DNA from: Pseudodesulfovibrio piezophilus C1TLV30 | GTDB lineage: Bacteria > Desulfobacterota > Desulfovibrionia > Desulfovibrionales > Desulfovibrionaceae | Reading direction: 5' to 3' | Assembly: GCF_000341895.1 (NCBI RefSeq) | Contig: NC_020409.1 | Span: 630,001-662,000, forward strand | Length of the DNA: 32,000 nucleotides | Part shown: piece by piece, positions 18,879 through 32,000 of the stretch | Numbering within the stretch: the stretch's first letter is position 1 | How the letters are laid out: each line of letters opens with the position of its first letter | The notes under the pieces: model-generated | The model's input: only the letters and a program-made list of their open reading frames with translations | What the model was told of the DNA's origin: nothing | Databases searched by the model: none | Translations under genes and position numbers: made by a program

Positions 18879-18908
18879 ATGGGCTTTTCTCTTTCAAGAA
18901 AAGCCCAT
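18879..18908 (-). terminator. Intrinsic terminator (minus strand) that now follows only a tRNA 3' stub
   Basis: Perfect 10-bp stem ATGGGCTTTT/AAAAGCCCAT. On the minus strand it is followed by TTTTTT, and it lies 10 nt downstream of the ...CTCTCCGCCA end at 18919. Confidence 0.7.
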
Positions 18909-18918
18909 GATACTCATA

Positions 18919-18937
18919 TGGCGGAGAGGGAGGGATC
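18919..18937 (-). other. Displaced 3' end of a tRNA (Ser-like acceptor, G73, CCA); att-type remnant marking the island junction
   Basis: The minus strand reads GATCCCTCCCTCTCCGCCA, which parses as T-stem 3' strand, acceptor CCTCTCC (pairs with GGAGAGG), discriminator G, and CCA. No tRNA body lies upstream; the sequence turns into AT-rich DNA at about 18938. Confidence 0.55.
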
Positions 18938-19134
18938 AGAAAATCATAATTTTACACAATGATTATAAATATATATAAAATTAAAGTAAAATTTTATACC
19001 ATTTATTATACCACCCACAAACAAGTGCCCTCCTGCGCCCTTAGCATTCCTAATACACTTAAAGCCAAATCAGTGTTCGGTTTAAACTCCTGTGTTAGTA
19101 CAATCGAACTGTAAAGAGTCAGAATAGGATAAGA

Positions 19135-19183
19135 ATTGACTCCCATTCAATAGGTCGTGGGTTCACTTCCCACTGCAACCACC
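19135..19183 (+). other. tRNA-like 3' two-thirds fragment (anticodon arm to acceptor end, CCC in anticodon position); not a functional tRNA
   Basis: ATTGA-CTCCCAT-TCAAT (5-bp stem, 7-nt loop with T33 and A37), variable AGGTC, T-arm GTGGG-TTCACTT-CCCAC (A58 replaced by C), then TGCAACC-A-CC. There is no complementary 5' acceptor strand or D-arm upstream. Confidence 0.45.
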
Positions 19184-19308: not shown

Positions 19309-19995
19309 ATGACGACTAGTTCAGTTCAATATGCATATGAATCGTTAAAAGGCACCAATAGAACATCTAATAAGGATGGCGTTGGGGCCTTCGATTTGGA
19401 CATCGATGGATACAGCTTATTTGCGATCTTTGATGGCGTTAGCAGCCTCGCCAACGCTAAAAATGGAGTCAACTTAGCACTCAGAGAGCTAGGGAGAATC
19501 TTCTACGAAAACAAACACAATAATGACATTGATCTTGTTAAAATAGTTGAATCTCTGAATGCTAAGATCAGAGAGAGTAAGTACAAAAAGCCCTATACGA
19601 CCTGCGCTATTTTAGCCATCCCTAAAGACAAAACTCGACCTGTGAAGATTGCAAGCTTAGGTGACTCAAGAATCTATGGCGTAGACAAACAATTTATCGA
19701 ACAGCTCACAGAGGATCATCATATCGATGGTCATCCAAGCGTTTTGACACGCTACCTTGGCATGGAGCAACTAGAGCACTCTGACATCTTTTACAAAGAA
19801 TTTATAAGTTCATTTTCTGATTATATGCTTTGCACCGACGGCTTCTGCTCTCTTTTTGAAAAAGATAAGTCCTTATTTCATGATATCTTTTTACGCCACA
19901 CTCCTACAGGCGCAAAGAAAGAAGTAAACAAGCTCATCCAAGGCAAAAATCAAGATGATGCAACGTATATCTATGTGAGGACTAATGATGTTTGA
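19309..19995 (+). CDS. PP2C-family Ser/Thr protein phosphatase
   Basis: Motifs NKDGVGAF...LFAIFDGVSS, ASLGDSRIYG, QLTEDHH, VLTRYLG, MLCTDGF and QDDATYIYV, in the order of bacterial PP2C metal-binding motifs. Confidence 0.8.
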   Translation: MTTSSVQYAYESLKGTNRTSNKDGVGAFDLDIDGYSLFAIFDGVSSLANAKNGVNLALRELGRIFYENKHNNDIDLVKIVESLNAKIRESKYKKPYTTCAILAIPKDKTRPVKIASLGDSRIYGVDKQFIEQLTEDHHIDGHPSVLTRYLGMEQLEHSDIFYKEFISSFSDYMLCTDGFCSLFEKDKSLFHDIFLRHTPTGAKKEVNKLIQGKNQDDATYIYVRTNDV

Positions 19996-20644
19996 TTCTG
20001 AACAAGCATTAGTAGACCTGCTAAAGGAGCAGTTGCCAGGACCTTTGTTTCAGAAGTCTGATGAGACATTGGTCTTAGATGAAGTCAACTTAGGCTATGG
20101 CATTGCCGACTTAGTCATCACTCAATACCTTCCGCCAAAGCCTTTAATGAGGAATAATTTCTTTTCGAATCTACATATAACCATTCTTGAGCTATTAAAA
20201 AACGTTAGATCGGCAACACTCCCCTGCATTGAAGACAAGACAAGGGCATCTAAACGCTCTATCAACAGATGTGTAGAAGCACTTATTGAAGATGCCTATG
20301 TCTCTCTTGAGAGCGATGTTGTTAGACTTGAAAGAGAGTACTACTGCTCTATAAAAAACACGATCGCGATAGAGGCAAAGCTCAAAAATTGGAAGAGAGC
20401 ACTTAATCAAGCTTACCGCTATAAATCATTCTCGAATGAGAGTTATGTCTGCTTGCCGGTTTCCAACTCTAGGCCAGCATTAAACAACCTCCACTTGTTT
20501 AAACAAATGGAGGTTGGACTACTAACCCTTCGCGATTGTGGCGATTTAGATATTATTTATGCTCCGCCTAGCGAGCAGCCAATTAGCAGCAAAATGAACA
20601 TGCTTTTGAATGAGCAAGTATTAACTAAGCTGCATTCATCTTGA
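19985..20644 (+). CDS. PD-(D/E)xK nuclease-fold protein (Cas4/RecB-like motif set) with an inserted winged-helix-like segment
   Basis: Contains LGYGIADLVI (GxhD), IAIEAKLKNW (ExK) and NQAYRY (QxxxY). The roughly 80 aa between motifs II and III (ILELLKNVRSATL...INRCVEALIEDAYV) looks wHTH-like. The start overlaps the PP2C stop by 11 nt, with a GAGGA SD. Confidence 0.55.
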   Translation: MMFDSEQALVDLLKEQLPGPLFQKSDETLVLDEVNLGYGIADLVITQYLPPKPLMRNNFFSNLHITILELLKNVRSATLPCIEDKTRASKRSINRCVEALIEDAYVSLESDVVRLEREYYCSIKNTIAIEAKLKNWKRALNQAYRYKSFSNESYVCLPVSNSRPALNNLHLFKQMEVGLLTLRDCGDLDIIYAPPSEQPISSKMNMLLNEQVLTKLHSS

Positions 20645-21794
20645 TTACAGATTGCCATATACCAAGGTGGTAATCAGCACTTTCATCTGTCAGAAAGACC
20701 TTATGGTCTCTCTCTAAACGCTCATAGAGCTCTCGGGCCTCTTCAACACGCTCCAAGAATGCAGATGGCCTAGCAGATAACGGCTTGCCCGCCAGTTCCT
20801 TCAACTGACGAGATACTGCTAGCAGGTAGTTCTTGTGAACATCCGGCTTGTGAGTATCCCTATAATACTCATCTTGAAGAATGACATCCGAAAAGATATT
20901 CTTTTCATTTGCAATCAATGAGATACAGTTTCTTGCACGAACGATTCCCAACTGTTGCGCCTTGATCATGTTCAAAAGCTTTTCAGAGTAATACCAACCC
21001 TTTGAAGGGCCGCCAGCAGTATCTTCTGTGAATCGAGTAACACTGAAGTTTCGCAGATTTTCATATGTGCCAATAGTGACACCATCTACATCAACAAGGG
21101 AAAGAAAGACCAGGGCGTCCCAATTGGCGTATCCTAAAATAGTTTTAAACCCCTGGGCCTTTAAAGTCGTAAGTACATTTAGCAAGTTTGTGTAATAGCT
21201 TACGTTTACGCTAATTTTCTTTTTGTACTCTAAGCTTGCACCACTTGCTATATAGTATCCGTCAAAGGCAATACTCATATCAGTTGCAGCTCTGAGAATC
21301 TTTTCAATATACTCTGAACTAGCGATTTGATTATCGGAAAAGCATAGAGTCATATAAAACTCCTCATCGCCCCTCACCTTCTGAAGCTTCTTGTTCACCC
21401 TATTCAGAATATCAATAGTTCTAGCGACGTCCCCCAGTTCATAAAAAAAGCTTGGGACTATTATCCTCTTAAGTCCAAGTTCTTGCTGATACTTTATCGA
21501 TGCCATTATGCAGTCGACACCGCTCACGCATGTGCCCTGTGATGAGGAATCATGGATAGGGTGGTAGGGATACGTGCCCAACTTACCACCTTGAGAAGCC
21601 TTATTTCCAAAAAACTGATGGTCAATCATCGATATAGGCAGATAGTCTTCTGCTTTATATCCACTGATAGGGTTGCCAATCTTTCCATACATAAAACTGT
21701 AGGCATTAAAAATGAATCCATCACCAATATCGTTAACAAAGTGGCTATCAAGGCTCCATTTATGATTGTGGCCTAGTTGGTGGTAGATTTCCAT
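20625..21794 (-). CDS. Hypothetical 389-aa protein, no recognisable motif; translationally coupled to the kinase
   Basis: GAGGAG SD inside the kinase 3' end, with the ATG 1 nt after the kinase TAA. A regular alternation of hydrophobic strand-like segments (IIVPSFFY, FYMTLCF, FDGYYI, TILGYANWD, DGVTIGTY) suggests an alpha/beta barrel-like fold. That fold suggestion is inference only. Confidence 0.6.
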   Translation of the reverse strand: MEIYHQLGHNHKWSLDSHFVNDIGDGFIFNAYSFMYGKIGNPISGYKAEDYLPISMIDHQFFGNKASQGGKLGTYPYHPIHDSSSQGTCVSGVDCIMASIKYQQELGLKRIIVPSFFYELGDVARTIDILNRVNKKLQKVRGDEEFYMTLCFSDNQIASSEYIEKILRAATDMSIAFDGYYIASGASLEYKKKISVNVSYYTNLLNVLTTLKAQGFKTILGYANWDALVFLSLVDVDGVTIGTYENLRNFSVTRFTEDTAGGPSKGWYYSEKLLNMIKAQQLGIVRARNCISLIANEKNIFSDVILQDEYYRDTHKPDVHKNYLLAVSRQLKELAGKPLSARPSAFLERVEEARELYERLERDHKVFLTDESADYHLGIWQSVIKMNAA

Positions 21795-21795
21795 A

Positions 21796-22581
21796 TTAGA
21801 GCTCCTCTAAAAACAAGTTCACAGTTCTAGGACGTAAGGAAATATTCTTCACAAATATCTTTTCAAAAAACTTTTTCAGAGAACAATCGTCATCCACATT
21901 ATAGTCGAAACTATCGGCAGCAAAGGTCGCACGAATTTCATCCTCAGTTGAACCGAACGGAAGAGAGGAATACTTCATCACATAAGCTATGATCCCAATA
22001 CTAAAAAAATCGGTTCGATATGAAATGGCATCACGATCTCCACTCAGTTGCTCAGGTGCAGCAAAGCCCGTTGTGTGAGGCTGAAATCCTGTTGTTGTGA
22101 TTGTGGAGTCTTCAGGATTTTTGTAGATGCCGAAATCGATTACATAAATCCCACCACCAGTTGTAACGATTATATTTTCTGGCTTTAAATCCCTATGCGT
22201 TTTGCCTTCCTGCCATATTGGTTCCATCACGCCACAAAGGCCCTGAACAAATGTCTTAATCGATGAATCTTCCCACTTGAGACGCAACATCTTATTAAGC
22301 GGAAGCCCTTCGATATACTCCTCAATGACAACAGTTTCACCCTTGTAAAGAACGACTTCAACAACCCTAGGGATGCCATCAAGGTGCTTATTTTCAAGGT
22401 AAAAATCTAGCTCCCGCTCATCCCGCTCATTAAAGCGGTACCTGAACATCTTCAAAGCAAACTTTTCATTTCCACGACTCACAATGAACACATATTTTTG
22501 AGCACCTTGAAAGCAGTCATGGACCTCAGTTATCCCCAACTGCTCAATCAAATCCTGCGGTAATGAAAAAATGGGTGGCAT
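21796..22581 (-). CDS. Minimal Hanks-type Ser/Thr protein kinase (kinase domain only, 261 aa)
   Basis: Contains FALKM (VAIK-like Lys), HRDLKPENI, DFG, GFAAPE, DFFSIGI and a subdomain XI Arg. The Gly-loop is degenerate (FQGAQKY). GAGGAG SD. Confidence 0.85.
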   Translation of the reverse strand: MPPIFSLPQDLIEQLGITEVHDCFQGAQKYVFIVSRGNEKFALKMFRYRFNERDERELDFYLENKHLDGIPRVVEVVLYKGETVVIEEYIEGLPLNKMLRLKWEDSSIKTFVQGLCGVMEPIWQEGKTHRDLKPENIIVTTGGGIYVIDFGIYKNPEDSTITTTGFQPHTTGFAAPEQLSGDRDAISYRTDFFSIGIIAYVMKYSSLPFGSTEDEIRATFAADSFDYNVDDDCSLKKFFEKIFVKNISLRPRTVNLFLEEL

Positions 22582-22730
22582 CTAGGCTCCTCACCGACAT
22601 GCTAAACTTGCCATCAATCAGATTGTTGATTCAAAAAACTTATAATACCTTTTGAATGCCGTGTAGTAAAGAATCAGAATGGCAAACATTTCATACCATT
22701 AAAGTCTACAATCAAGTAAGAGCATTATAA

Positions 22731-23447
22731 CTATGAAGCCTTCCGCTTAAGACTTTTAATATACAGGGACGAACTGTTCATAAAAAATACACCATGTGAC
22801 AAAGTTGAAACAAAGGCTCCGAGCGGCAGCCCCTCAATCTCAAACTGCTCCATGAAATACTGATCAAGATGCAGCTGCGCCATATGAAGGCCTTCATAGC
22901 ACGACAACTTCAACTGTTTATCCTTGTTGTTTTTCTCATTGCAACTGGTAAACCTCCGCTTCGTGAACCATGTCCTACAGACCATTGGCCGGACTGCATA
23001 AATTGAACAAACCCCATCGTCACAAAACGGACATTGAGAGCTAAATTCGCGGCAGATGGATCTAAACTCAGCCCTTTTGGTGGGCATTTGTTTGAAGCTA
23101 TCCCAAAAGGCTTCTCTAAATGGTTCAAAATCGACATCCCATTGTGGATACTTCTCAGCAAAGCTATTCCGGATGCCAGGCTGCTTATCTAGAAACTCAT
23201 TTATGCACAGCAATTCGCTGGGATAAGCGTGAATAATCTGGTTGCAACAAAAGCTGCACCCCGGCTTACACTTCACAGTTCGCTTCCCAATCTCGCTATC
23301 AATGATAAAGTCTGAAAGCTTCAGGAATTCACGATAAATATCCAAATACGCCGAAAGACGTTTCTTGAACTTCAAAGAAGTAAGATCGGGAAGAGCTTCT
23401 GGGCCATAATTCATAAATGAACATACCACTTCTTCAACTTTGCCCAT
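22731..23447 (-). CDS. YkgJ/UPF0153-type cysteine-cluster (Zn/Fe-chelating) protein
   Basis: CKPGCSFCC plus CPFCDDGVCSIYAVRPMVCRTW match the CxxCxxCC ... CPFL-x-G-x-C-x-IY-x-x-RP-x-x-CR pattern of that family. Confidence 0.6.
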   Translation of the reverse strand: MGKVEEVVCSFMNYGPEALPDLTSLKFKKRLSAYLDIYREFLKLSDFIIDSEIGKRTVKCKPGCSFCCNQIIHAYPSELLCINEFLDKQPGIRNSFAEKYPQWDVDFEPFREAFWDSFKQMPTKRAEFRSICREFSSQCPFCDDGVCSIYAVRPMVCRTWFTKRRFTSCNEKNNKDKQLKLSCYEGLHMAQLHLDQYFMEQFEIEGLPLGAFVSTLSHGVFFMNSSSLYIKSLKRKAS

Positions 23448-24178: not shown

Positions 24179-24559
24179 CTAACTATCTACATCTAGAAAA
24201 TTTACGGCTTTATTCAAAACGATTTCAACCATCACAACCTGCTGGTAGTTAAGGGTTATTTCATTCAAGACACGCCCTTGCAGCGCGACCCTTGCATGCA
24301 AAAAGACCTCCCCATCTTTCTGGCATTTAGAGAAGGTCAAATAGCCCTGTTTATCGTTTCCAAAGGAATCAACATTTGACTTTATTGATCCAATCTTGTT
24401 GTATAAATAAGCCTGAAACCAACTTTTCAAATAGGCAAGCATCAGCAACGAAGAAACGTTCACCCCTAGAAATGAGGCCTTTAGCGTCTTCTCAACATTT
24501 CCACCGGCCACCTTTTCTTTCGCCATATAGCATTTAAGCCCGTACTCTTCGAACGTCAT
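24179..24559 (-). CDS. Hypothetical protein coupled to the recombinase gene
   Basis: ATGA start/stop overlap with the recombinase gene at 24556-24559. No motif recognised. Confidence 0.5.
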   Translation of the reverse strand: MTFEEYGLKCYMAKEKVAGGNVEKTLKASFLGVNVSSLLMLAYLKSWFQAYLYNKIGSIKSNVDSFGNDKQGYLTFSKCQKDGEVFLHARVALQGRVLNEITLNYQQVVMVEIVLNKAVNFLDVDS

Positions 24560-25479
24560 TTCAAGTAATGCTCCGTAATATCGGGCCGCTCATGGCCCAT
24601 TTCTTTGGATACACGACCTAGGCTTTCATAATAAGAAACACCACCTTGACGTAATTCTTTCATACGCCGTTGCGCGTAATTCCATCTAAGCCCATGAGAA
24701 CCATTATACTTCTGAGAAGTAAGCGCGGAAGCCTCTTTCAAACCAGCCCTATAATGATCCTTATTAATTTTAAATTTACCGTACTTTTGAATATGCTCTT
24801 TCAACTTCTGAAATGTTGCAGGAGAAAGTTGCGGCCTCAACACCTTCCCCCCCTTCCCCTTCGCTTCAAACTGCCCCCCTGGCCGAAGTTGACCTTTCCG
24901 AATCAACGAAATCTCATTAACTCGACTCCCGGCCTCATATTGCATCTGAGCTGCGAGTTGATGGTCAGCATTAGAAACAAATTGGATTAAAGCTTCAGGT
25001 TGATGGTACGCCCTCGTCGATTCAAACCGCTTCAGCTCTTTTGCATCCTCTCTCGTAGCCTCAATGCCGCTTTGCAGCTCAAAACGTCGCTTCATCCCCG
25101 TCTTATCTGCGAAGCCATTAAGAGCCACTTCCAGCTTACTCAGGGCAGCTGCGTACTGATTGTATGTAGCTCTTGCCACCCCCCTCTCAATGCACTCTTC
25201 TAAATACGACTGAACGTGCCGGGCTTCTATCCGAGTCAATTGCCTCAAACCATACTTATCCCTTGCGTGAATAAAGCACCTTCTCCAACACTCTCGATAA
25301 GCATCTGCAGTACTATACGAATGAATACCGAGCTTCTTACCCAAATCTCGCCAGGTCCTCGCCCCGTCTTTTCTGGCAACCTCCTTGGCTGCATGTTTAG
25401 AAGAGCCTATGCGTTTGATACCAGACACTTCATAAACGAGCTTAACTTGACGCTTTGGGCTTCCGTATTTCTTGGCCAT
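24556..25479 (-). CDS. Tyrosine recombinase / integrase
   Basis: Catalytic-signature candidates appear in order: AGSRVNE (Arg I), HGLRWNYA (His-x-x-Arg) and MGHERPDITEHYLK (His ... Tyr). Confidence 0.7.
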   Translation of the reverse strand: MAKKYGSPKRQVKLVYEVSGIKRIGSSKHAAKEVARKDGARTWRDLGKKLGIHSYSTADAYRECWRRCFIHARDKYGLRQLTRIEARHVQSYLEECIERGVARATYNQYAAALSKLEVALNGFADKTGMKRRFELQSGIEATREDAKELKRFESTRAYHQPEALIQFVSNADHQLAAQMQYEAGSRVNEISLIRKGQLRPGGQFEAKGKGGKVLRPQLSPATFQKLKEHIQKYGKFKINKDHYRAGLKEASALTSQKYNGSHGLRWNYAQRRMKELRQGGVSYYESLGRVSKEMGHERPDITEHYLK

Positions 25480-28298: not shown

Positions 28299-28862
28299 CT
28301 ATTTTTTTAGAACATTTTGAATCTCTTGTCGCGCATCTTGTACTGCATAGGCACTATTCAACTCAACATCAAAGATGGTCCTTCCTTGATCCATTGCCAC
28401 CCGATAAACAGTTCTGCTCTTCACGATCTTAGGCTCTGCAAAGAGCTTCATTTTGACAGCCCGCTGCATGGTCTGCCTTTCAACCCTGTGCTGTCTCTTC
28501 ACATCATTGAATACGACAACGACTTTCACTCCCGAAGCCACGAGACTACGCAAAGCTTTGACTCCGGCTTGCATGTCAGGACGGGATGGACGCATAGGGA
28601 AAACTACGGCCTGTGAAGTGGGAACCTCTGAAAACCCTGGAGGATGATCCACTATTACGACATCAAAACCATTGCGTGGGATTTTATCAGTCACCTCGAA
28701 CGGAAGGTTCCCATCGGCGGCAATCGCAAGAGCGGTTCCCTGAGGATCAAGGTCTGCCAAAACCACACTCTTTCCTTTAGCCTGAACTGCGGCTGAAAGG
28801 TTCAAAGCCAGGGTAGATTTCCCAACCCCTCCTTTTGGATTCCATACTGATATTGTAAGCAC
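28299..28862 (-). CDS. parA: ParA-family partition ATPase (small, type Ib-like)
   Basis: Deviant Walker A NPKGGVGKST, plus DLDPQG and VVIVDHPP. GTG start with an AGGAGG SD. Confidence 0.8.
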   Translation of the reverse strand: MLTISVWNPKGGVGKSTLALNLSAAVQAKGKSVVLADLDPQGTALAIAADGNLPFEVTDKIPRNGFDVVIVDHPPGFSEVPTSQAVVFPMRPSRPDMQAGVKALRSLVASGVKVVVVFNDVKRQHRVERQTMQRAVKMKLFAEPKIVKSRTVYRVAMDQGRTIFDVELNSAYAVQDARQEIQNVLKK

Positions 28863-29411: not shown

Positions 29412-29434
29412 AGCGGACAAAGTTGCACGTTAAG
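29397..29434. repeat. Tn3-family 38-bp terminal inverted repeat
   Basis: GGGGGCACTCCATAGAGCGGACAAAGTTGCACGTTAAG. It has the GGGG outer end and the ACGTTAAG inner end seen in Tn3 (GGGGTCTGACGCTCAGTGGAACGAAAACTCACGTTAAG). The tnpA stop codon is embedded in TTAAG. Confidence 0.8.
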
Positions 29435-32000
29435 GCGTTTGGCCAAGATTCCAGATATAATCTCCTGTGAGATTGATGTGCTCCCATCCAAGCGGAGAAA
29501 GGTAGCTCTGAAACTCCTCCGGAACATCCATTTCCTCTCGTACTTTTTTCACGGCCTTTTCCAGATAGACCGTGTTCCAGAGGATTATCGTAGCTACGAC
29601 AAGGTTTAGACCAGAAGTCCTATAGCACTGGCTTTCAAAAGAACGATCTCGGACTTCTCCGAGTCGATTGAAAAACACTGCACGAGCAAGTGCGTTTCTG
29701 GACTCCCCTTTGTTCAGACCGGCTTGAACACGAGAACGGAGTTCTGGCTTTTTGACCCAATCCAATAGGAAAAGAGTCCTTTCCAAACGCCCAAGCTCGC
29801 GTATGGCCAAAGCCAATTTGTTTTGCCGTGGATAGGAGGCCAACTTACGAATTATGAGGGATGCCGTAACGGTTCCCAATCGAATTGAGCTTGCCAGCCT
29901 CAATATCTCTTCCCATTGGTTCTCAATGTCCTTTTGCTTGATCTTTGATCCTATCAACGGCTCCAGGTCAGCCCAGCGTTTTGCGCTGCCAAAGGTGTAT
30001 AGTTTTACGTCACCTATGTTGCGAATTCGGGGAGCAAAACGAAATCCGAGCAAATGGCAAAGAGCAAACACATGGTCCGTAAAACCTGCGGTGTCAGTGT
30101 AGTGTTCTTCAATATTGAGATTGCTTTCATGGTAAAGCAAGCCGTCCAGGACATAGGTTGCATCGCGTGCTGTTGCGTTGATGAGCTGGCTGTGAAATGG
30201 GGTGTATTGATCCGAGATGTGGGTGTAGAAAATCACACCGGGATCTCGCCCATATCGGGCATTTACATCTCCGAGGCCTCGACCAACACTGCCAAGAGGA
30301 AAGTGCTGCCCGTCTGAAGACGAGGTGGAGCCATCGCCCCACTGTCCTGCAAGTGGAATTATGTGGTGGTAATTGGTTATCTCAGCCAACCCTCTGGAAT
30401 AGCATTCGCTTCTGACATACCAATCCGAAACCCAAGACAACTGTTTATACGAGGCCCCGGAACTAGCCTCTGCCATCCTTGTCAGTCCAAGATTAATCCC
30501 ATCTGAGAGAATCACTGACAAAAGAGATTCCTTGTCTTGAGATGGTTGGCCAGTTCTCAAATGAGTGAATTGTTCGGTGAAACCTGTCCATTGATCTACT
30601 TCAATGAGGAGATCGGTAATTTTAATGCGAGGAAGCTCTGCATATACGCGCCGGCTGAATTGCTTGGCTTCATCGGGAACAGAGTTACCCCTATATGGTT
30701 GCATTGAAAGCCTACCATTCTTGAGACAAACCGTATCCAAATCATTGCTTCTGAGAAGCCTTTGGAATTCTTCCAACTGACTTTCAAGGAGTTCTTTCCG
30801 CTCTGAGATGTATCTTGTGCAATCCGTTTCGACCGCTACAGGTATTTCACGAGACTCCTGAAGCTGACGAAAAGCGGAAGGGCCCATGAGGTATTCGTTG
30901 AAATCTTCGAATTGACGGCTGCCTGGTACCCATACATCGCCAGAACGGAGTCGGTTACGGAGTTCGCTTAAAGCGCACAGTTCATAGTACCTACGGTTCA
31001 GGCCATCAGTTTCGAAAATAAATGGTTGCCAGCGTTTTGGGATAAATGAAGTAGGAACTTGGTCGGGCAATTTGCGTTTGCCCGTTTTGTTCATGTCACG
31101 GATGATATCAATAGCTGTAAGAACATCCCGTCCACCAGAGCTTGCACGGAAGTCAAAATGCTCCAACATGGTTGGAGCATACCGCCGAATCTGATTGAAA
31201 CTCGTGTCAACATAATGGAGATAATCGAACCGCTGAGGTTGAGACAGGTTTTCAGCAGCTTCAACCGTTGCACGAAAATCATCCCAGGACAGTTCAGCCT
31301 CGATTAGCTCCCAAGGGTCTAAATGCTCCTCACGCGCTTTGATTAAGGCTTGGCCAAGCTTTGAGAAAACGTTGACGGTTGTTTTGATGTTCTTTGCATC
31401 ATCTTGTAGCTGAGTAGCCTGTTTTCGTTGGCTACGCCGCATTAGGGAGCCAATGATGCGGTCATGCATGTTGACGACCTCATCCATTAAGGAGCGTTGA
31501 ATTTCAAGCAAGCATACGGTCATGATCGTATACCGTCTTTGTTCATTCAACATTCGCAGATTATGCACAGCAATTCGATTACCTTCTTGGGCAAGTTGCT
31601 TGCGGCGAATTGTCGGTACTGCGTCCAAGACCTCGGAAGGAAGACCAAGCAACCGGATAGCGGCCAACTTTTCCATTATCAAAATCACATTTATAGGAGA
31701 AGGACGGCCAGCAGGTTGACGAATCCATGAAAGTCTACTCTGTGATTTCTCGCCTCGTGGATTAAGCCAAAATTTAAGATCAGCCTGGTGCCTGTCGGAC
31801 AACAGGCCGGTCACTTCATTGTAGACTCTGCGATCTGCTTGGATCTTCACCTGGGCAACGAGGCGTTCCACAACTGTCAAAGCAGGATGCAGAATTTTGC
31901 GACGTCTCAATTCATTTAGGGTTGCACCTACAAGGAAAGTACTCTTTGGATTGTCTACAGCAATTGGCGTCAGCCAGCGCACCATCTCTTGATAGTGACT
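29430..32000 (-). CDS. tnpA: Tn3-family transposase (N-terminal ~140 aa beyond window)
   Basis: More than 851 aa. The frame stays open upstream of the track's Met to the window edge. Typical Tn3 TnpA length and C-terminal DDE region (YTDTAGFTDHVFALCHLLGFRFAPRIRN), ending in the IR. Confidence 0.85.
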   Translation of the reverse strand, partial: SHYQEMVRWLTPIAVDNPKSTFLVGATLNELRRRKILHPALTVVERLVAQVKIQADRRVYNEVTGLLSDRHQADLKFWLNPRGEKSQSRLSWIRQPAGRPSPINVILIMEKLAAIRLLGLPSEVLDAVPTIRRKQLAQEGNRIAVHNLRMLNEQRRYTIMTVCLLEIQRSLMDEVVNMHDRIIGSLMRRSQRKQATQLQDDAKNIKTTVNVFSKLGQALIKAREEHLDPWELIEAELSWDDFRATVEAAENLSQPQRFDYLHYVDTSFNQIRRYAPTMLEHFDFRASSGGRDVLTAIDIIRDMNKTGKRKLPDQVPTSFIPKRWQPFIFETDGLNRRYYELCALSELRNRLRSGDVWVPGSRQFEDFNEYLMGPSAFRQLQESREIPVAVETDCTRYISERKELLESQLEEFQRLLRSNDLDTVCLKNGRLSMQPYRGNSVPDEAKQFSRRVYAELPRIKITDLLIEVDQWTGFTEQFTHLRTGQPSQDKESLLSVILSDGINLGLTRMAEASSGASYKQLSWVSDWYVRSECYSRGLAEITNYHHIIPLAGQWGDGSTSSSDGQHFPLGSVGRGLGDVNARYGRDPGVIFYTHISDQYTPFHSQLINATARDATYVLDGLLYHESNLNIEEHYTDTAGFTDHVFALCHLLGFRFAPRIRNIGDVKLYTFGSAKRWADLEPLIGSKIKQKDIENQWEEILRLASSIRLGTVTASLIIRKLASYPRQNKLALAIRELGRLERTLFLLDWVKKPELRSRVQAGLNKGESRNALARAVFFNRLGEVRDRSFESQCYRTSGLNLVVATIILWNTVYLEKAVKKVREEMDVPEEFQSYLSPLGWEHINLTGDYIWNLGQTP

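Follow-up and report, generated by a model that had tools for sequence, protein, structure and literature searches.

The single-gene kinase defenses PD-T4-6 and Stk2 act in abortive infection. BREX type 2/Pgl (with the kinase PglW and the phosphatase-like PglZ) and MADS (with the kinase MAD6) are multigene defenses that include a Ser/Thr kinase, and the TerY-P triad (Gao_TerY) joins a TerY vWA protein to a PP2C phosphatase and a Ser/Thr kinase. KKP, which is found on Pf and other prophages, comprises the kinases PfkA and PfkB and the PP2C phosphatase PfpC (PMC11341870). It is a tripartite kinase/phosphatase toxin-antitoxin system in which the kinase is toxic and the phosphatase is the antitoxin; it defends against lytic phages and also controls Pf prophage production (PMC11341870).

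Among kinase/phosphatase-controlled conflict systems, the four-gene cassette of Pseudodesulfovibrio piezophilus C1TLV30 described here appears, on our best reading of the analogies, closest in logic to KKP. Both oppose a Hanks-type kinase with a PP2C_2-family phosphatase, and both are carried by prophages and by mobile elements of other kinds. In contrast with KKP, the cassette has a single bare kinase, its phosphatase gene lies on the opposite strand and is dispensable in variants, and a TIM barrel and a PD-(D/E)xK-like protein, both missing from KKP, are obligatory. PD-T4-6 and Stk2 are longer, stand-alone proteins with extra domains, whereas the cassette kinase is bare and has partners. It matches the PADLOC PD-T4-6 models (best E, 6.1e-23) through the generic catalytic domain only (profile positions 31-215 of 327), and these models also match housekeeping PASTA kinases (PMC11514479). 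The sequence-only reading of this DNA had proposed that the cassette was undescribed and lacked vWA, PglZ, and methylase partners, and profile searches agree on both points. The partners in TerY-P triads differ from those of the cassette; no vWA/TerY protein was found in the cassette or its flanks, and its kinase carries no zinc ribbon. BREX type 2/Pgl and MADS were rejected, with scores of 30.6 bits for NCBIfam PglW (cutoff, 990) and 55.5 bits for MAD6 (cutoff, 460), and searches of Pfam, PADLOC, and NCBIfam found no methyltransferase, PglZ, ATPase, or other MADS/BREX gene in the cassette. No named system in the PADLOC, Pfam, or NCBIfam models or in the literature searched covers the four genes, and the cassette is apparently unnamed.

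The four open reading frames (ORFs) form two convergent pairs at 19309-22581 (ORF coordinates) of the window, the 32,000-nt stretch of DNA that was analyzed (Table 1). The coupled pairs and the 11-, 1-, and 20-nt junctions first read from the sequence are all present. The PP2C stop overlaps the start of the 219-aa gene by 11 nt; use of a second ATG at 19988 would reduce this overlap to 8 nt and the product to 218 aa. This ATG, which agrees with the deposited 218-aa CCH47859 and with the -8 spacing of most related loci, is probably the true start. A site scan found no terminator-like site within the cassette. The junctions are similarly tight elsewhere: the pairs overlap at their 3′ ends by 8 to 44 nt in 24 of 26 distinct tabulated loci, including two with a disrupted gene, and by 0 nt in one further locus. 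Every intact locus has a kinase-to-TIM barrel gap between -7 and +10 nt, in each distant variant these two genes abut or overlap, and the PP2C-to-nuclease-like gap is -32 to +8 nt in related loci. A sigma-70-like site upstream of the kinase is a possible promoter of the kinase/TIM barrel pair, and it is only a candidate because the scan gave fewer sites than shuffled sequence.

Table 1. Features of the cassette and its upstream edge, with positions in the window
Feature	Position	Strand	Basis or remark
Degenerate tRNA-like remnant	19118..19181	+	Rfam tRNA; island edge just 5′ of cassette, context only
PP2C (PPM-family) Ser/Thr phosphatase, 228 aa, CCH47858 / WP_015413912	19309..19995	+	Pfam PP2C_2; source annotation agrees
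PD-(D/E)xK-like protein with inserted winged-helix domain, 219 aa	19985..20644	+	Motifs, predicted topology
20-nt tail-to-tail overlap of convergent pairs, without terminator	20625..20644	.	ORF coordinates
Predicted TIM barrel with C-terminal three-helix bundle, 389 aa, CCH47860 / WP_015413914	20625..21794	-	AlphaFold2 model
Kinase stop / 1 nt / TIM barrel start codon	21792..21798	-	ORF coordinates; translational coupling
Bare Hanks-type Ser/Thr protein kinase, 261 aa, CCH47862 / WP_015413916	21796..22581	-	Pfam Pkinase
Weak sigma-70-like site (candidate)	22642..22670	-	9/12 consensus match; within 149-nt spacer 5′ of kinase

Both enzyme assignments made from motifs are borne out by profiles. 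The kinase matches Pfam Pkinase over residues 35-252 (E, 4.1e-24; 85.8 bits; cutoff, 31.7), and K44, E57, H128-R-D130, D149-F-G, A-P-E, and the activation-loop Thr162 are invariant in an alignment of 24 distinct loci. The phosphatase matches PP2C_2 (E, 1.5e-9; 38.1 bits; cutoff, 24) and, partially, NCBIfam Stp1_PP2C. In the same 24 loci, the Asp-Gly of its first motif (FDGVSS), the Gly-Asp of GDSR, and the Asp-Gly of TDG are invariant, and the QDD motif region carries invariant positions. These invariant catalytic residues suggest that both proteins are competent enzymes.

The 389-aa protein, deposited as a hypothetical protein, had yielded nothing recognizable on first reading. That holds for the profile libraries, where it has no significant match in Pfam, NCBIfam, PADLOC, or PHROGs, but a fold is predicted with confidence: the AlphaFold2 model (pLDDT, 93.4; pTM, 0.92) has eight beta-alpha units followed by helices at 317-387. 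Foldseek returned generic TIM barrels only (TMq, 0.25 to 0.46), and the protein would represent a new family, a predicted TIM barrel with no close known relative. Clustering at 90% gave 323 homologues, and clustering at 50% gave 605 cluster representatives. No chemistry can be assigned to the barrel, whose putative active-site residues differ within the superfamily.

The 219-aa protein likewise has no significant match in Pfam, NCBIfam, PADLOC, or PHROGs, with only faint matches to Herpes_UL24 profiles. It had been credited with Cas4/RecB-style nuclease motifs. The motif set is conserved in 70 homologues, in which E6, E33, D42, E130-x-K132, Q142, and Y146 are invariant or at least 90% conserved, and it is retained in distant variants, but neither profile (Pfam, PDB) nor fold searches matched a known nuclease family. 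The order E...D...ExK...Q..Y on an alpha-beta-beta-beta-alpha-beta core resembles RecB/Cas4-type proteins, although Cas4-type cysteines are absent. We call the protein nuclease-like, a description drawn from motifs and from the predicted order of strands and helices. A winged-helix (wHTH) insert had been overlooked. In the AlphaFold2 model (pLDDT, 95; alpha-beta-beta-[wHTH]-beta-alpha-beta), it sits between core strands 2 and 3; it matches PDB profiles of MarR/Lrp-type regulators and wHTH structures in Foldseek (rmsd, 1 to 2.5 Å), and HTH_24 was matched in 20 of the 70 family members. Mrr-type proteins also join a winged helix to a PD-(D/E)xK domain, but there the wHTH is appended rather than inserted.

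A check of synteny showed the gene order to be strictly kept across phyla. Every related locus with enough flank has the same order and orientation (kinase→TIM→ ←nuclease-like←PP2C), and the hosts span seven or more groups of about phylum rank (Desulfobacterota, SAR324, Bacteroidota, Ignavibacteria, Spirochaetota, Gammaproteobacteria, and Patescibacteria). The four proteins codiverge, with correlated matrices of pairwise identity (r, 0.80 to 0.90). The cassette is rare, with at least 31 loci among 185,579 species genomes, a count that is a lower bound because the scan was pattern limited. In all seven distant TIM family members with usable sequence, the TIM barrel gene directly follows a kinase gene and has a nuclease-like gene beside it; an eighth, for which there is no DNA, has a kinase and is left out of this count. 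The kinase was not found apart from its cassette partners in these variants or in the related loci.

The cargo of an island in the window starts with the cassette. The AT-richer island noted earlier is seen as a drop in GC to 0.40-0.42 over about 18.5 to 24.5 kb (0.43-0.51 upstream), and the neighbors noted with it, a tyrosine-recombinase-like ORF, a ParA ATPase, and a Tn3 transposase, lie past the cassette. The claim of tRNA-derived remnants stands in part: a degenerate tRNA-like sequence is present at the edge, but it scores 22.6 bits against an Rfam gathering score of 29, its 3′ half occurs once in the window, and ARAGORN calls no intact tRNA in the window. Related cassettes are also on mobile elements, with ParAB, integrase, serine recombinase, relaxase, and T4SS genes nearby; one context includes TrbL/NikA, a resolvase, PIN, IS21, and Abi_2. 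One variant lies in a prophage lysogeny module and is also present in IMG/VR, where the core family was not found. A check for defense neighbors gave individual named loci. The cassette is directly abutted by SIR2+HerA in Puia and by Helicase+DUF2290 in Niastella caeni and by an SspH-like protein in SAR324, and flanking ORFs of related loci include matches to GajA, SoFic, and AbiD.

We give about an even chance to the reading that the cassette is a mobile-element-borne conflict module (anti-phage or anti-plasmid, of the abortive-infection type) built on protein phosphorylation, and we consider it a credible candidate for phosphorylation-controlled defense. In its favor are the conserved synteny and close gene spacing, the codivergence, the invariant enzyme residues, the constant core of three genes, the replacement of the phosphatase in one variant, the mobile-element and defense neighbors, the KKP precedent, and the disruption of the kinase in all four decayed copies. 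Counting against it are the rarity of the cassette, the negative search for the core family in IMG/VR, the lack of a profile or fold match to a nuclease for the 219-aa protein, the variable putative active site of the barrel, and the variants without a phosphatase. The computational checks that the sequence-only reading had named as possible refutations were all carried out, and none went against it. The defense phenotype, nuclease activity, complex formation, direction of signaling, and sensor and effector roles in the following model are those that we infer, and gating of the nuclease by phosphorylation is purely conjectural. The bare kinase, cotranslated with the TIM barrel protein, would probably act in complex with it, and the barrel would contribute the surface for sensing or regulation that is missing from the kinase. 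In the uninfected cell, PP2C would strip kinase-dependent phosphates, including that on the conserved activation-loop Thr, and keep the system off. Invasion would shift the balance to the kinase, and phosphorylation would license the winged-helix/PD-(D/E)xK protein for DNA cutting. Direct modification of host targets by the kinase is a further possibility, on the pattern of the kinase toxin systems KKP and Stk2. The end result would be arrest of the invader or of the cell.

The module might instead stabilize its carrier island, plasmid, or prophage or exclude rival elements, with the kinase and/or the nuclease-like protein as toxin and PP2C as a labile or titratable antitoxin, a role that we consider unlikely but that has several observations behind it. 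[quoted passage not shown] Further, the kinase is the disrupted gene in four of four decayed copies (some frameshifts may be MAG assembly errors), as would be expected if the kinase were costly or toxic. However, several variants lack any phosphatase, and simple kinase/phosphatase toxin-antitoxin logic is therefore not general; direct adjacency to SIR2-HerA or Helicase-DUF2290 is also more typical of immune genes. Addiction and phage defense are not mutually exclusive.

The clear MarR/Lrp-type wHTH raises the rather improbable alternative that the 219-aa protein is a DNA-binding regulator of element excision, induction, or transfer, set by the kinase/phosphatase balance, with its PD-(D/E)xK-like domain serving as a sensor or dimerization domain instead of a nuclease. 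KKP offers a precedent for lysogeny control, and the prophage variant lies between ImmA-like protease/cI-type repressor genes and the integrase. However, the 150- to 173-aa forms in several variants lack the wHTH while the E/D/ExK/Q..Y set is always present, which places the conserved function in the nuclease-like core rather than in sequence-specific DNA regulation. Many unrelated kinds of element carry the cassette (prophage, ICE, plasmid-like, and integrative islands), so that a shared life-cycle regulator is unlikely.

A quite improbable reading has the TIM barrel modifying or marking the cell's own nucleic acid, or stripping a sugar or base modification specific to phage, with the PD-(D/E)xK protein cutting unmarked or marked DNA and the kinase and phosphatase only tuning the process. 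The conserved convergence of two functional pairs and weak glycoside-hydrolase-like and AP-endonuclease-like similarities of the barrel are consistent with such a restriction-modification-like scheme, as is the barrel's mean identity of 0.51, the highest among the four proteins, which would suit a fixed-substrate enzyme. Against it, the top 50 fold matches include no TGT/DpdA or other known DNA-modifying TIM barrel, the residues that might be catalytic are not constant within the superfamily, and the invariant partner is the kinase, not the barrel to which it is translationally coupled. It is very improbable that the barrel is a carbohydrate or envelope enzyme regulated by phosphorylation, that it comes with a transcription factor of its own, and that mobile DNA carries the set only by chance: faint GH114, GH31, and GH18-like matches of the barrel and the wHTH protein are in its favor, but the spread over distant phyla is patchy and rare, all four genes codiverge, the context is of mobile elements or defense throughout, and there is no signal peptide, transport partner, or conserved metabolic neighbor.

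For the conflict module that we favor, the variants separate core from accessory. The core of the family is the kinase, the TIM barrel, and the nuclease-like protein, and the phosphatase slot holds PP2C, Metallophos, or nothing. The antagonistic kinase/phosphatase switch proposed from the sequence gains from the one variant in which PP2C is replaced by an unrelated Metallophos phosphoesterase, an independent sign of selection for a phosphatase function together with the kinase. Its generality does not hold: since several variants lack a phosphatase, the antagonistic switch would be a feature of this subfamily and not of the whole family, in whose phosphatase-less members it can work differently or be dispensed with.

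The four ORFs claimed in a sequence-only reading of the window were all found in place, and the junctions claimed for them hold: the PP2C gene overlaps that of the 219-aa protein by 11 nt, the kinase stop lies 1 nt from the start of the 389-aa gene, and the two pairs overlap tail to tail by 20 nt. The first overlap shrinks to 8 nt if the second ATG, at 19988, is the start; this is the start of the deposited 218-aa protein, and it yields the -8 spacing usual among related loci. The deposited C1TLV30 annotation of the four genes reads PP2C phosphatase, hypothetical, hypothetical, and Ser/Thr kinase. A scan of the cassette for RNA elements and terminators returned nothing convincing.

Features of the cassette and its surroundings in the window and, where an L number is given, of related loci in other genomes (coordinates within that locus)
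Feature	Location	Strand	Size
PP2C phosphatase	19309-19995	+	228 aa
Nuclease-like protein	19985-20644	+	219 aa
Predicted TIM-barrel protein	20625-21794	-	389 aa
Hanks kinase	21796-22581	-	261 aa
Terminator-like hairpin	18879-18908	-	13 pairs
tRNA-like fragment, shorter	18921-18939
tRNA-like fragment, longer	19118-19181
Cys-rich ORF	22731-23447	-	238 aa
Recombinase-like ORF	24556-25479	-	307 aa
ParA-type ATPase ORF	28299-28862	-	187 aa
Tn3 transposase ORF	29430-31985	-
SIR2+HerA	L032, 9384-12376
Helicase+DUF2290	L028, 8731-11515
SspH-like ATPase	L011, 8876-11917
J-domain protein	L005, 6815-7204; L006, 2652-3041		129 aa
FRG-domain protein	L043, 1192-2208
Metallophos phosphoesterase	L047, 6332-7018	+

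Homologues of the 389-aa and 219-aa proteins formed 323 and 161 clusters, respectively, from very different bacteria, and often shared contigs with adjacent locus tags. Conservation of gene order, a check named by the sequence-only reading, was examined in neighborhoods from Leptospira meyeri, a Desulfobacter genome, Sphingobacteriaceae, and a Yanofskybacteria genome and in 31 loci from a scan of species-representative genomes. Apart from loci cut off by a contig end, every related locus with enough flank had its genes arranged as kinase→TIM→ ←nuclease-like←PP2C, with order and orientation alike. Among 24 intact distinct loci, the gap between the kinase and TIM genes ranged from -7 to +10 nt and that between the PP2C and nuclease-like genes from -32 to +8 nt. 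Of the 26 distinct loci tabulated, 24, including two with a disrupted gene, had a 3′ overlap of 8 to 44 nt, and one other had 0 nt. Pairwise identities of the four proteins correlated with one another (r 0.80 to 0.90), indicating that the cassette is inherited and exchanged as a unit. Neighborhood comparison of the related loci revealed no fifth conserved gene flanking it. The cassette is rare, with at least 31 loci among 185,579 species genomes, a count that is a lower bound because the scan was pattern based; its host range is broad, from Patescibacteria to Bacteroidota and Desulfobacterota.

Several genes lie beside individual copies. In two Sphingobacteriaceae loci a J-domain (DnaJ) protein is encoded 2 nt before the kinase, and an FRG-domain protein is encoded directly upstream of the kinase in another variant; both genes are lineage specific, and neither is kept across loci. 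In the window, the Cys-rich ORF, which shares the strand of the kinase and lies just upstream of it, had a sub-threshold match to a CxxCxxCC zinc/iron-chelating domain (E 0.024). It was left out of the system because it is not conserved beside the cassette in other genomes. Decayed copies were seen at four loci (L012, L018, L026, and L036), and the kinase was disrupted in all four: it is frameshifted in three, and a deletion in L036 fuses the kinase N terminus to the TIM C terminus. Each of the other cassette genes was hit just once. The kinase disruptions may reflect selection against a toxic or costly kinase, or some may be errors of MAG assembly.

Two assignments made from the sequence, a bare 261-aa Hanks kinase and a PP2C phosphatase, were borne out by profiles and invariant residues. 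The kinase matched PF00069 (Pkinase) with 85.8 bits against a threshold of 31.7, and K44, E57, HRD128-130, DFG149-151, APE, and the activation-loop Thr were invariant among 24 distinct loci, as expected of the Hanks type; 9 residues remain after the end of the domain. The phosphatase scored 38.1 bits against PF13672 (PP2C_2; cutoff, 24) and has the features of the PP2C/PPM family. Over the same 24 loci, the Asp-Gly of FDGVSS was invariant, the Gly-Asp of GDSR and the Asp-Gly of TDG were marked invariant in the alignment, and invariant positions were present in the QDD motif, for which the residue mapping is incomplete. Judging from these residues, the kinase and PP2C are probably both active enzymes.

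The 389-aa protein had no match in Pfam, NCBIfam, PADLOC, or PHROGs, and PDB sequence searches with its family and superfamily profiles returned nothing significant. When 71 family members were scanned singly against Pfam, only faint GH114 and GH31 matches appeared. The confidently predicted model (pLDDT 93.4) has the TIM fold, a barrel of eight beta-alpha units followed by a C-terminal three-helix bundle. Its top Foldseek matches in PDB and BFVD were all TIM barrels with TMq values of only 0.25 to 0.46, among them PEPC, enzyme I, HpcH aldolase, GH5/18/53/84, xylose isomerase, and AP endonuclease 2. Since Foldseek yielded generic TIM barrels only, a specific enzyme assignment was rejected, including TGT/DpdA, endonuclease IV, adenosine deaminase, and GH84 as identities of the protein. 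We treat it as a new TIM-barrel family. Of the four proteins, the barrel shows the highest conservation (mean identity, 0.51), and its family-level invariant residues lie at strand C termini. Across the superfamily, only Q6 and Y181 are invariant, and D58, Q60, Y75, and Q103 are conserved at 90% or more. The protein may act as a ligand-binding regulator, or it may be an enzyme whose catalytic set shifts.

For the 219-aa protein, too, no significant family match came from Pfam, NCBIfam, PADLOC, or PHROGs. Its predicted model is highly confident (pLDDT 95) and runs H6-16, E28-35, E40-48, insert, E123-131, H136-148, E152-158, which is the PD-(D/E)xK topology (alpha-beta-beta-beta-alpha-beta, with E, D, and (D/E)xK on helix 1, strand 2, and strand 3). 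E6, D42, E130-x-K132, and then Q142..Y146 are invariant or nearly so in the family. A winged-helix domain sits between strands 2 and 3; this insert was recognized by PDB profiles, by Foldseek, and by Pfam HTH_24 in 20 of 70 members, and E6, D42, E130, and K132 are retained in variants that do not have it. Neither the full profile nor the insert-free profile (A3) found relatives in PDB or Pfam, and the whole-model Foldseek matches all fell to the winged-helix insert. A member-by-member Pfam scan gave faint Herpes_UL24 matches in 5 of 70 members (best E, 0.04). The order of the core elements, together with the conservation of E6, D42, ExK, and Q..Y, makes a PD-(D/E)xK nuclease-like reading of the modeled protein well motivated. 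The nuclease motif set proposed from the sequence stood at the level of motif residues, and the predicted topology agrees with it; no profile or fold search gave a match to a known nuclease.

A TIM-family profile was searched against 1.84 billion representatives. The search found 605 clusters, most of about 390 to 400 aa, and eight distant members, seven with usable sequence, were examined. All seven have a Hanks kinase gene immediately upstream, overlapping or abutting the TIM gene, and an adjacent, HMM-verified gene of the 219-aa family (E 1e-31 to 1e-44); in the eighth the kinase is present, and the third gene falls outside the available data. The nuclease-like protein of the variants can be without the winged helix (150- to 173-aa forms), and its gene may occur on either strand or precede the kinase gene. 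The phosphatase is a PP2C in one distant variant and a Metallophos phosphoesterase in another and is absent from prophage, plasmid-like, and recombinase-linked variants. In locus L047, the Metallophos (calcineurin-like) protein stands in the place of PP2C beside a distant kinase/TIM/nuclease-like triad, by its family assignment a non-homologous phosphatase displacement. Since kinase, TIM, and nuclease-like genes are kept in distant members while the phosphatase varies, the three-gene set is the invariant core. The phosphatase is an add-on to that core, recruited at least twice from unrelated folds, which argues that phosphorylation state matters. The variants amount to a natural experiment: the phosphatase is PP2C, Metallophos, or missing, and the winged helix of the nuclease-like protein is present or absent.

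The surroundings of the cassette in the window fit an island. CvpA and MazG are encoded upstream of it, GC content is lower (0.40 to 0.42), in line with the AT-richer island first described, and the recombinase, partition, and Tn3 genes claimed alongside are represented by a recombinase-like ORF, ParA, and a Tn3 transposase downstream. The tRNA-derived remnants were recovered in part, as a degenerate, full-length tRNA match (the longer fragment) with a sub-threshold score of 22.6 bits. At the island edge, an AT-rich stretch separates the two tRNA-like fragments; the shorter is, by eye, a tRNA 3′ end in reverse complement (TGGCGGAGAGGGAGGGAT), and since the 3′ fragment has no second copy in the window, the other end of the island was not placed. 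A strong terminator-like hairpin with a T-run lies between mazG and the island and overlaps a weak Rfam match to the sRNA BTnc231 that falls below threshold (27.4 bits versus 80.4). In the recombinase-like ORF, the N-terminal SAM-like integrase domain is clear, but the catalytic Phage_integrase domain is matched only marginally (E 0.066); the ORF may encode a tyrosine recombinase that has diverged or degenerated. The ParA-type ORF has only 187 aa, and the Tn3 ORF, which runs close to the edge of the window, matches the N-terminal DUF4158 over only the final 45 positions of that domain; either ORF may be truncated or begin at a wrongly called start.

Elsewhere, flanking genes are mostly integrases, transposases, resolvases, and T4SS or relaxase genes. 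The prophage variant lies between ImmA-like protease/repressor genes and an integrase and recurs in IMG/VR, where it was the only form found; the search there did not find the core family. In three unrelated genomes, the PP2C end of the cassette is abutted by defense genes: a complete SIR2+HerA system in Puia, a complete Helicase+DUF2290 system in Niastella caeni, and an SspH-like ATPase in SAR324. GajA, SoFic, and AbiD matches occurred among 139 flanking ORFs of 27 loci, Abi_2 and PIN genes lie near the Desulfobacter locus, and a CHAT protease gene lies near the Leptospira locus. As a rough estimate, a known defense gene lies within 5 kb in at least 6 of 27 loci, which by rough judgment would be well above the level at random positions. 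Mobile-element cargo and defense neighbors make the cassette, through guilt by association, a candidate for an anti-phage role.

Profile searches (Pfam, NCBIfam, PADLOC, and PHROGs) and structure searches (Foldseek with the 389-aa and 219-aa models), both named as checks by the sequence-only reading, placed the four genes in no named system. The closest experimentally studied logic, by analogy, is that of KKP, in which the kinases act as toxins and PP2C as the antitoxin, the phosphatase being inhibited by a phage protein (PMC11341870). In KKP, PP2C is followed by two kinases, of which one carries a cold-shock domain and the other an FHA domain (PMC11341870); membership was rejected because the cassette has a single 261-aa kinase without either domain, and no second kinase was present in the cassette at any locus inspected. 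TerY-P triads place a TerY-like vWA protein beside PP2C and a kinase that ends in a zinc ribbon, whereas our kinase has no zinc ribbon and neither the cassette nor its neighbors encode a vWA protein, so TerY-P was also rejected. The cassette contains none of the vWA, PglX/PglZ, or methylase partners, as first noted. The PADLOC match of the kinase to PD-T4-6 (E 6.1e-23) covers the catalytic domain only and is a generic kinase-domain match; PD-T4-6 models are non-specific and also label housekeeping PASTA kinases (PMC11514479). PD-T4-6 is a stand-alone single-gene defense; the cassette kinase never stood alone in the loci inspected. MADS (kinase versus MAD6, 55.5 against 460 bits) and BREX type 2 (kinase versus PglW, 30.6 against 990 bits) were rejected, the kinase scores being far under the equivalog cutoffs, and their partner genes are absent. 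The PADLOC candidate PDC-M21 (A, B, C) was dismissed, as only PDC-M21C matched, and weakly (PP2C, E 2.4e-6, 25 bits). Other PADLOC components gave only insignificant CARF3 matches for the 219-aa protein (E 0.0086 to 0.033) and none for the 389-aa protein. No description of the gene set was found in the incompletely searchable literature on a kinase and PP2C with a TIM barrel or with defense.

To our knowledge, bacterial kinase-based immunity comprises few systems (Stk2, PD-T4-6, KKP, TerY-P, and PglW), and it is mostly unclear how their kinases detect infection. Every computational test available supports the interpretation of the four genes as an undescribed conflict cassette based on phosphorylation. 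The analysis shows tight kinase-TIM coupling, two obligatory partners, four-gene co-inheritance, and a mobile-element and defense context; it also shows a kinase and a PP2C that, with their catalytic residues intact, are predicted to be antagonistic. Since the kinase has no sensor domain, its coupled TIM partner is most likely sensing or regulatory. In the proposed mechanism, the TIM-barrel partner would supply sensing or regulation for the kinase, and PP2C would hold the system off. Upon invasion, kinase activity would outweigh the phosphatase, and the kinase could license the nuclease-like protein, phosphorylate host targets, or both, with abortive infection or exclusion as the outcome. A bolder and rather doubtful reading is a new immune-system family built on a Hanks kinase, a new TIM barrel, and a new PD-(D/E)xK core, in which TIM sensing or catalysis would be read out by phosphorylation, with an interchangeable PP2C/Metallophos off-switch; the barrel might then, for example, recognize or hydrolyze a phage-specific glycosylated or modified nucleotide or DNA.

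The cassette is best read as a kinase/phosphatase-controlled defense or toxin module with two new protein families, a well-delimited and experimentally tractable candidate rather than a demonstrated mechanism. In so compact and evolutionarily rigid a unit, sensing or effector functions must reside in two small, well-predicted partner proteins. Should it prove to be a defense system, immunity would gain two new protein families and perhaps a new activity of TIM barrels; otherwise, it remains a widespread module of mobile elements.
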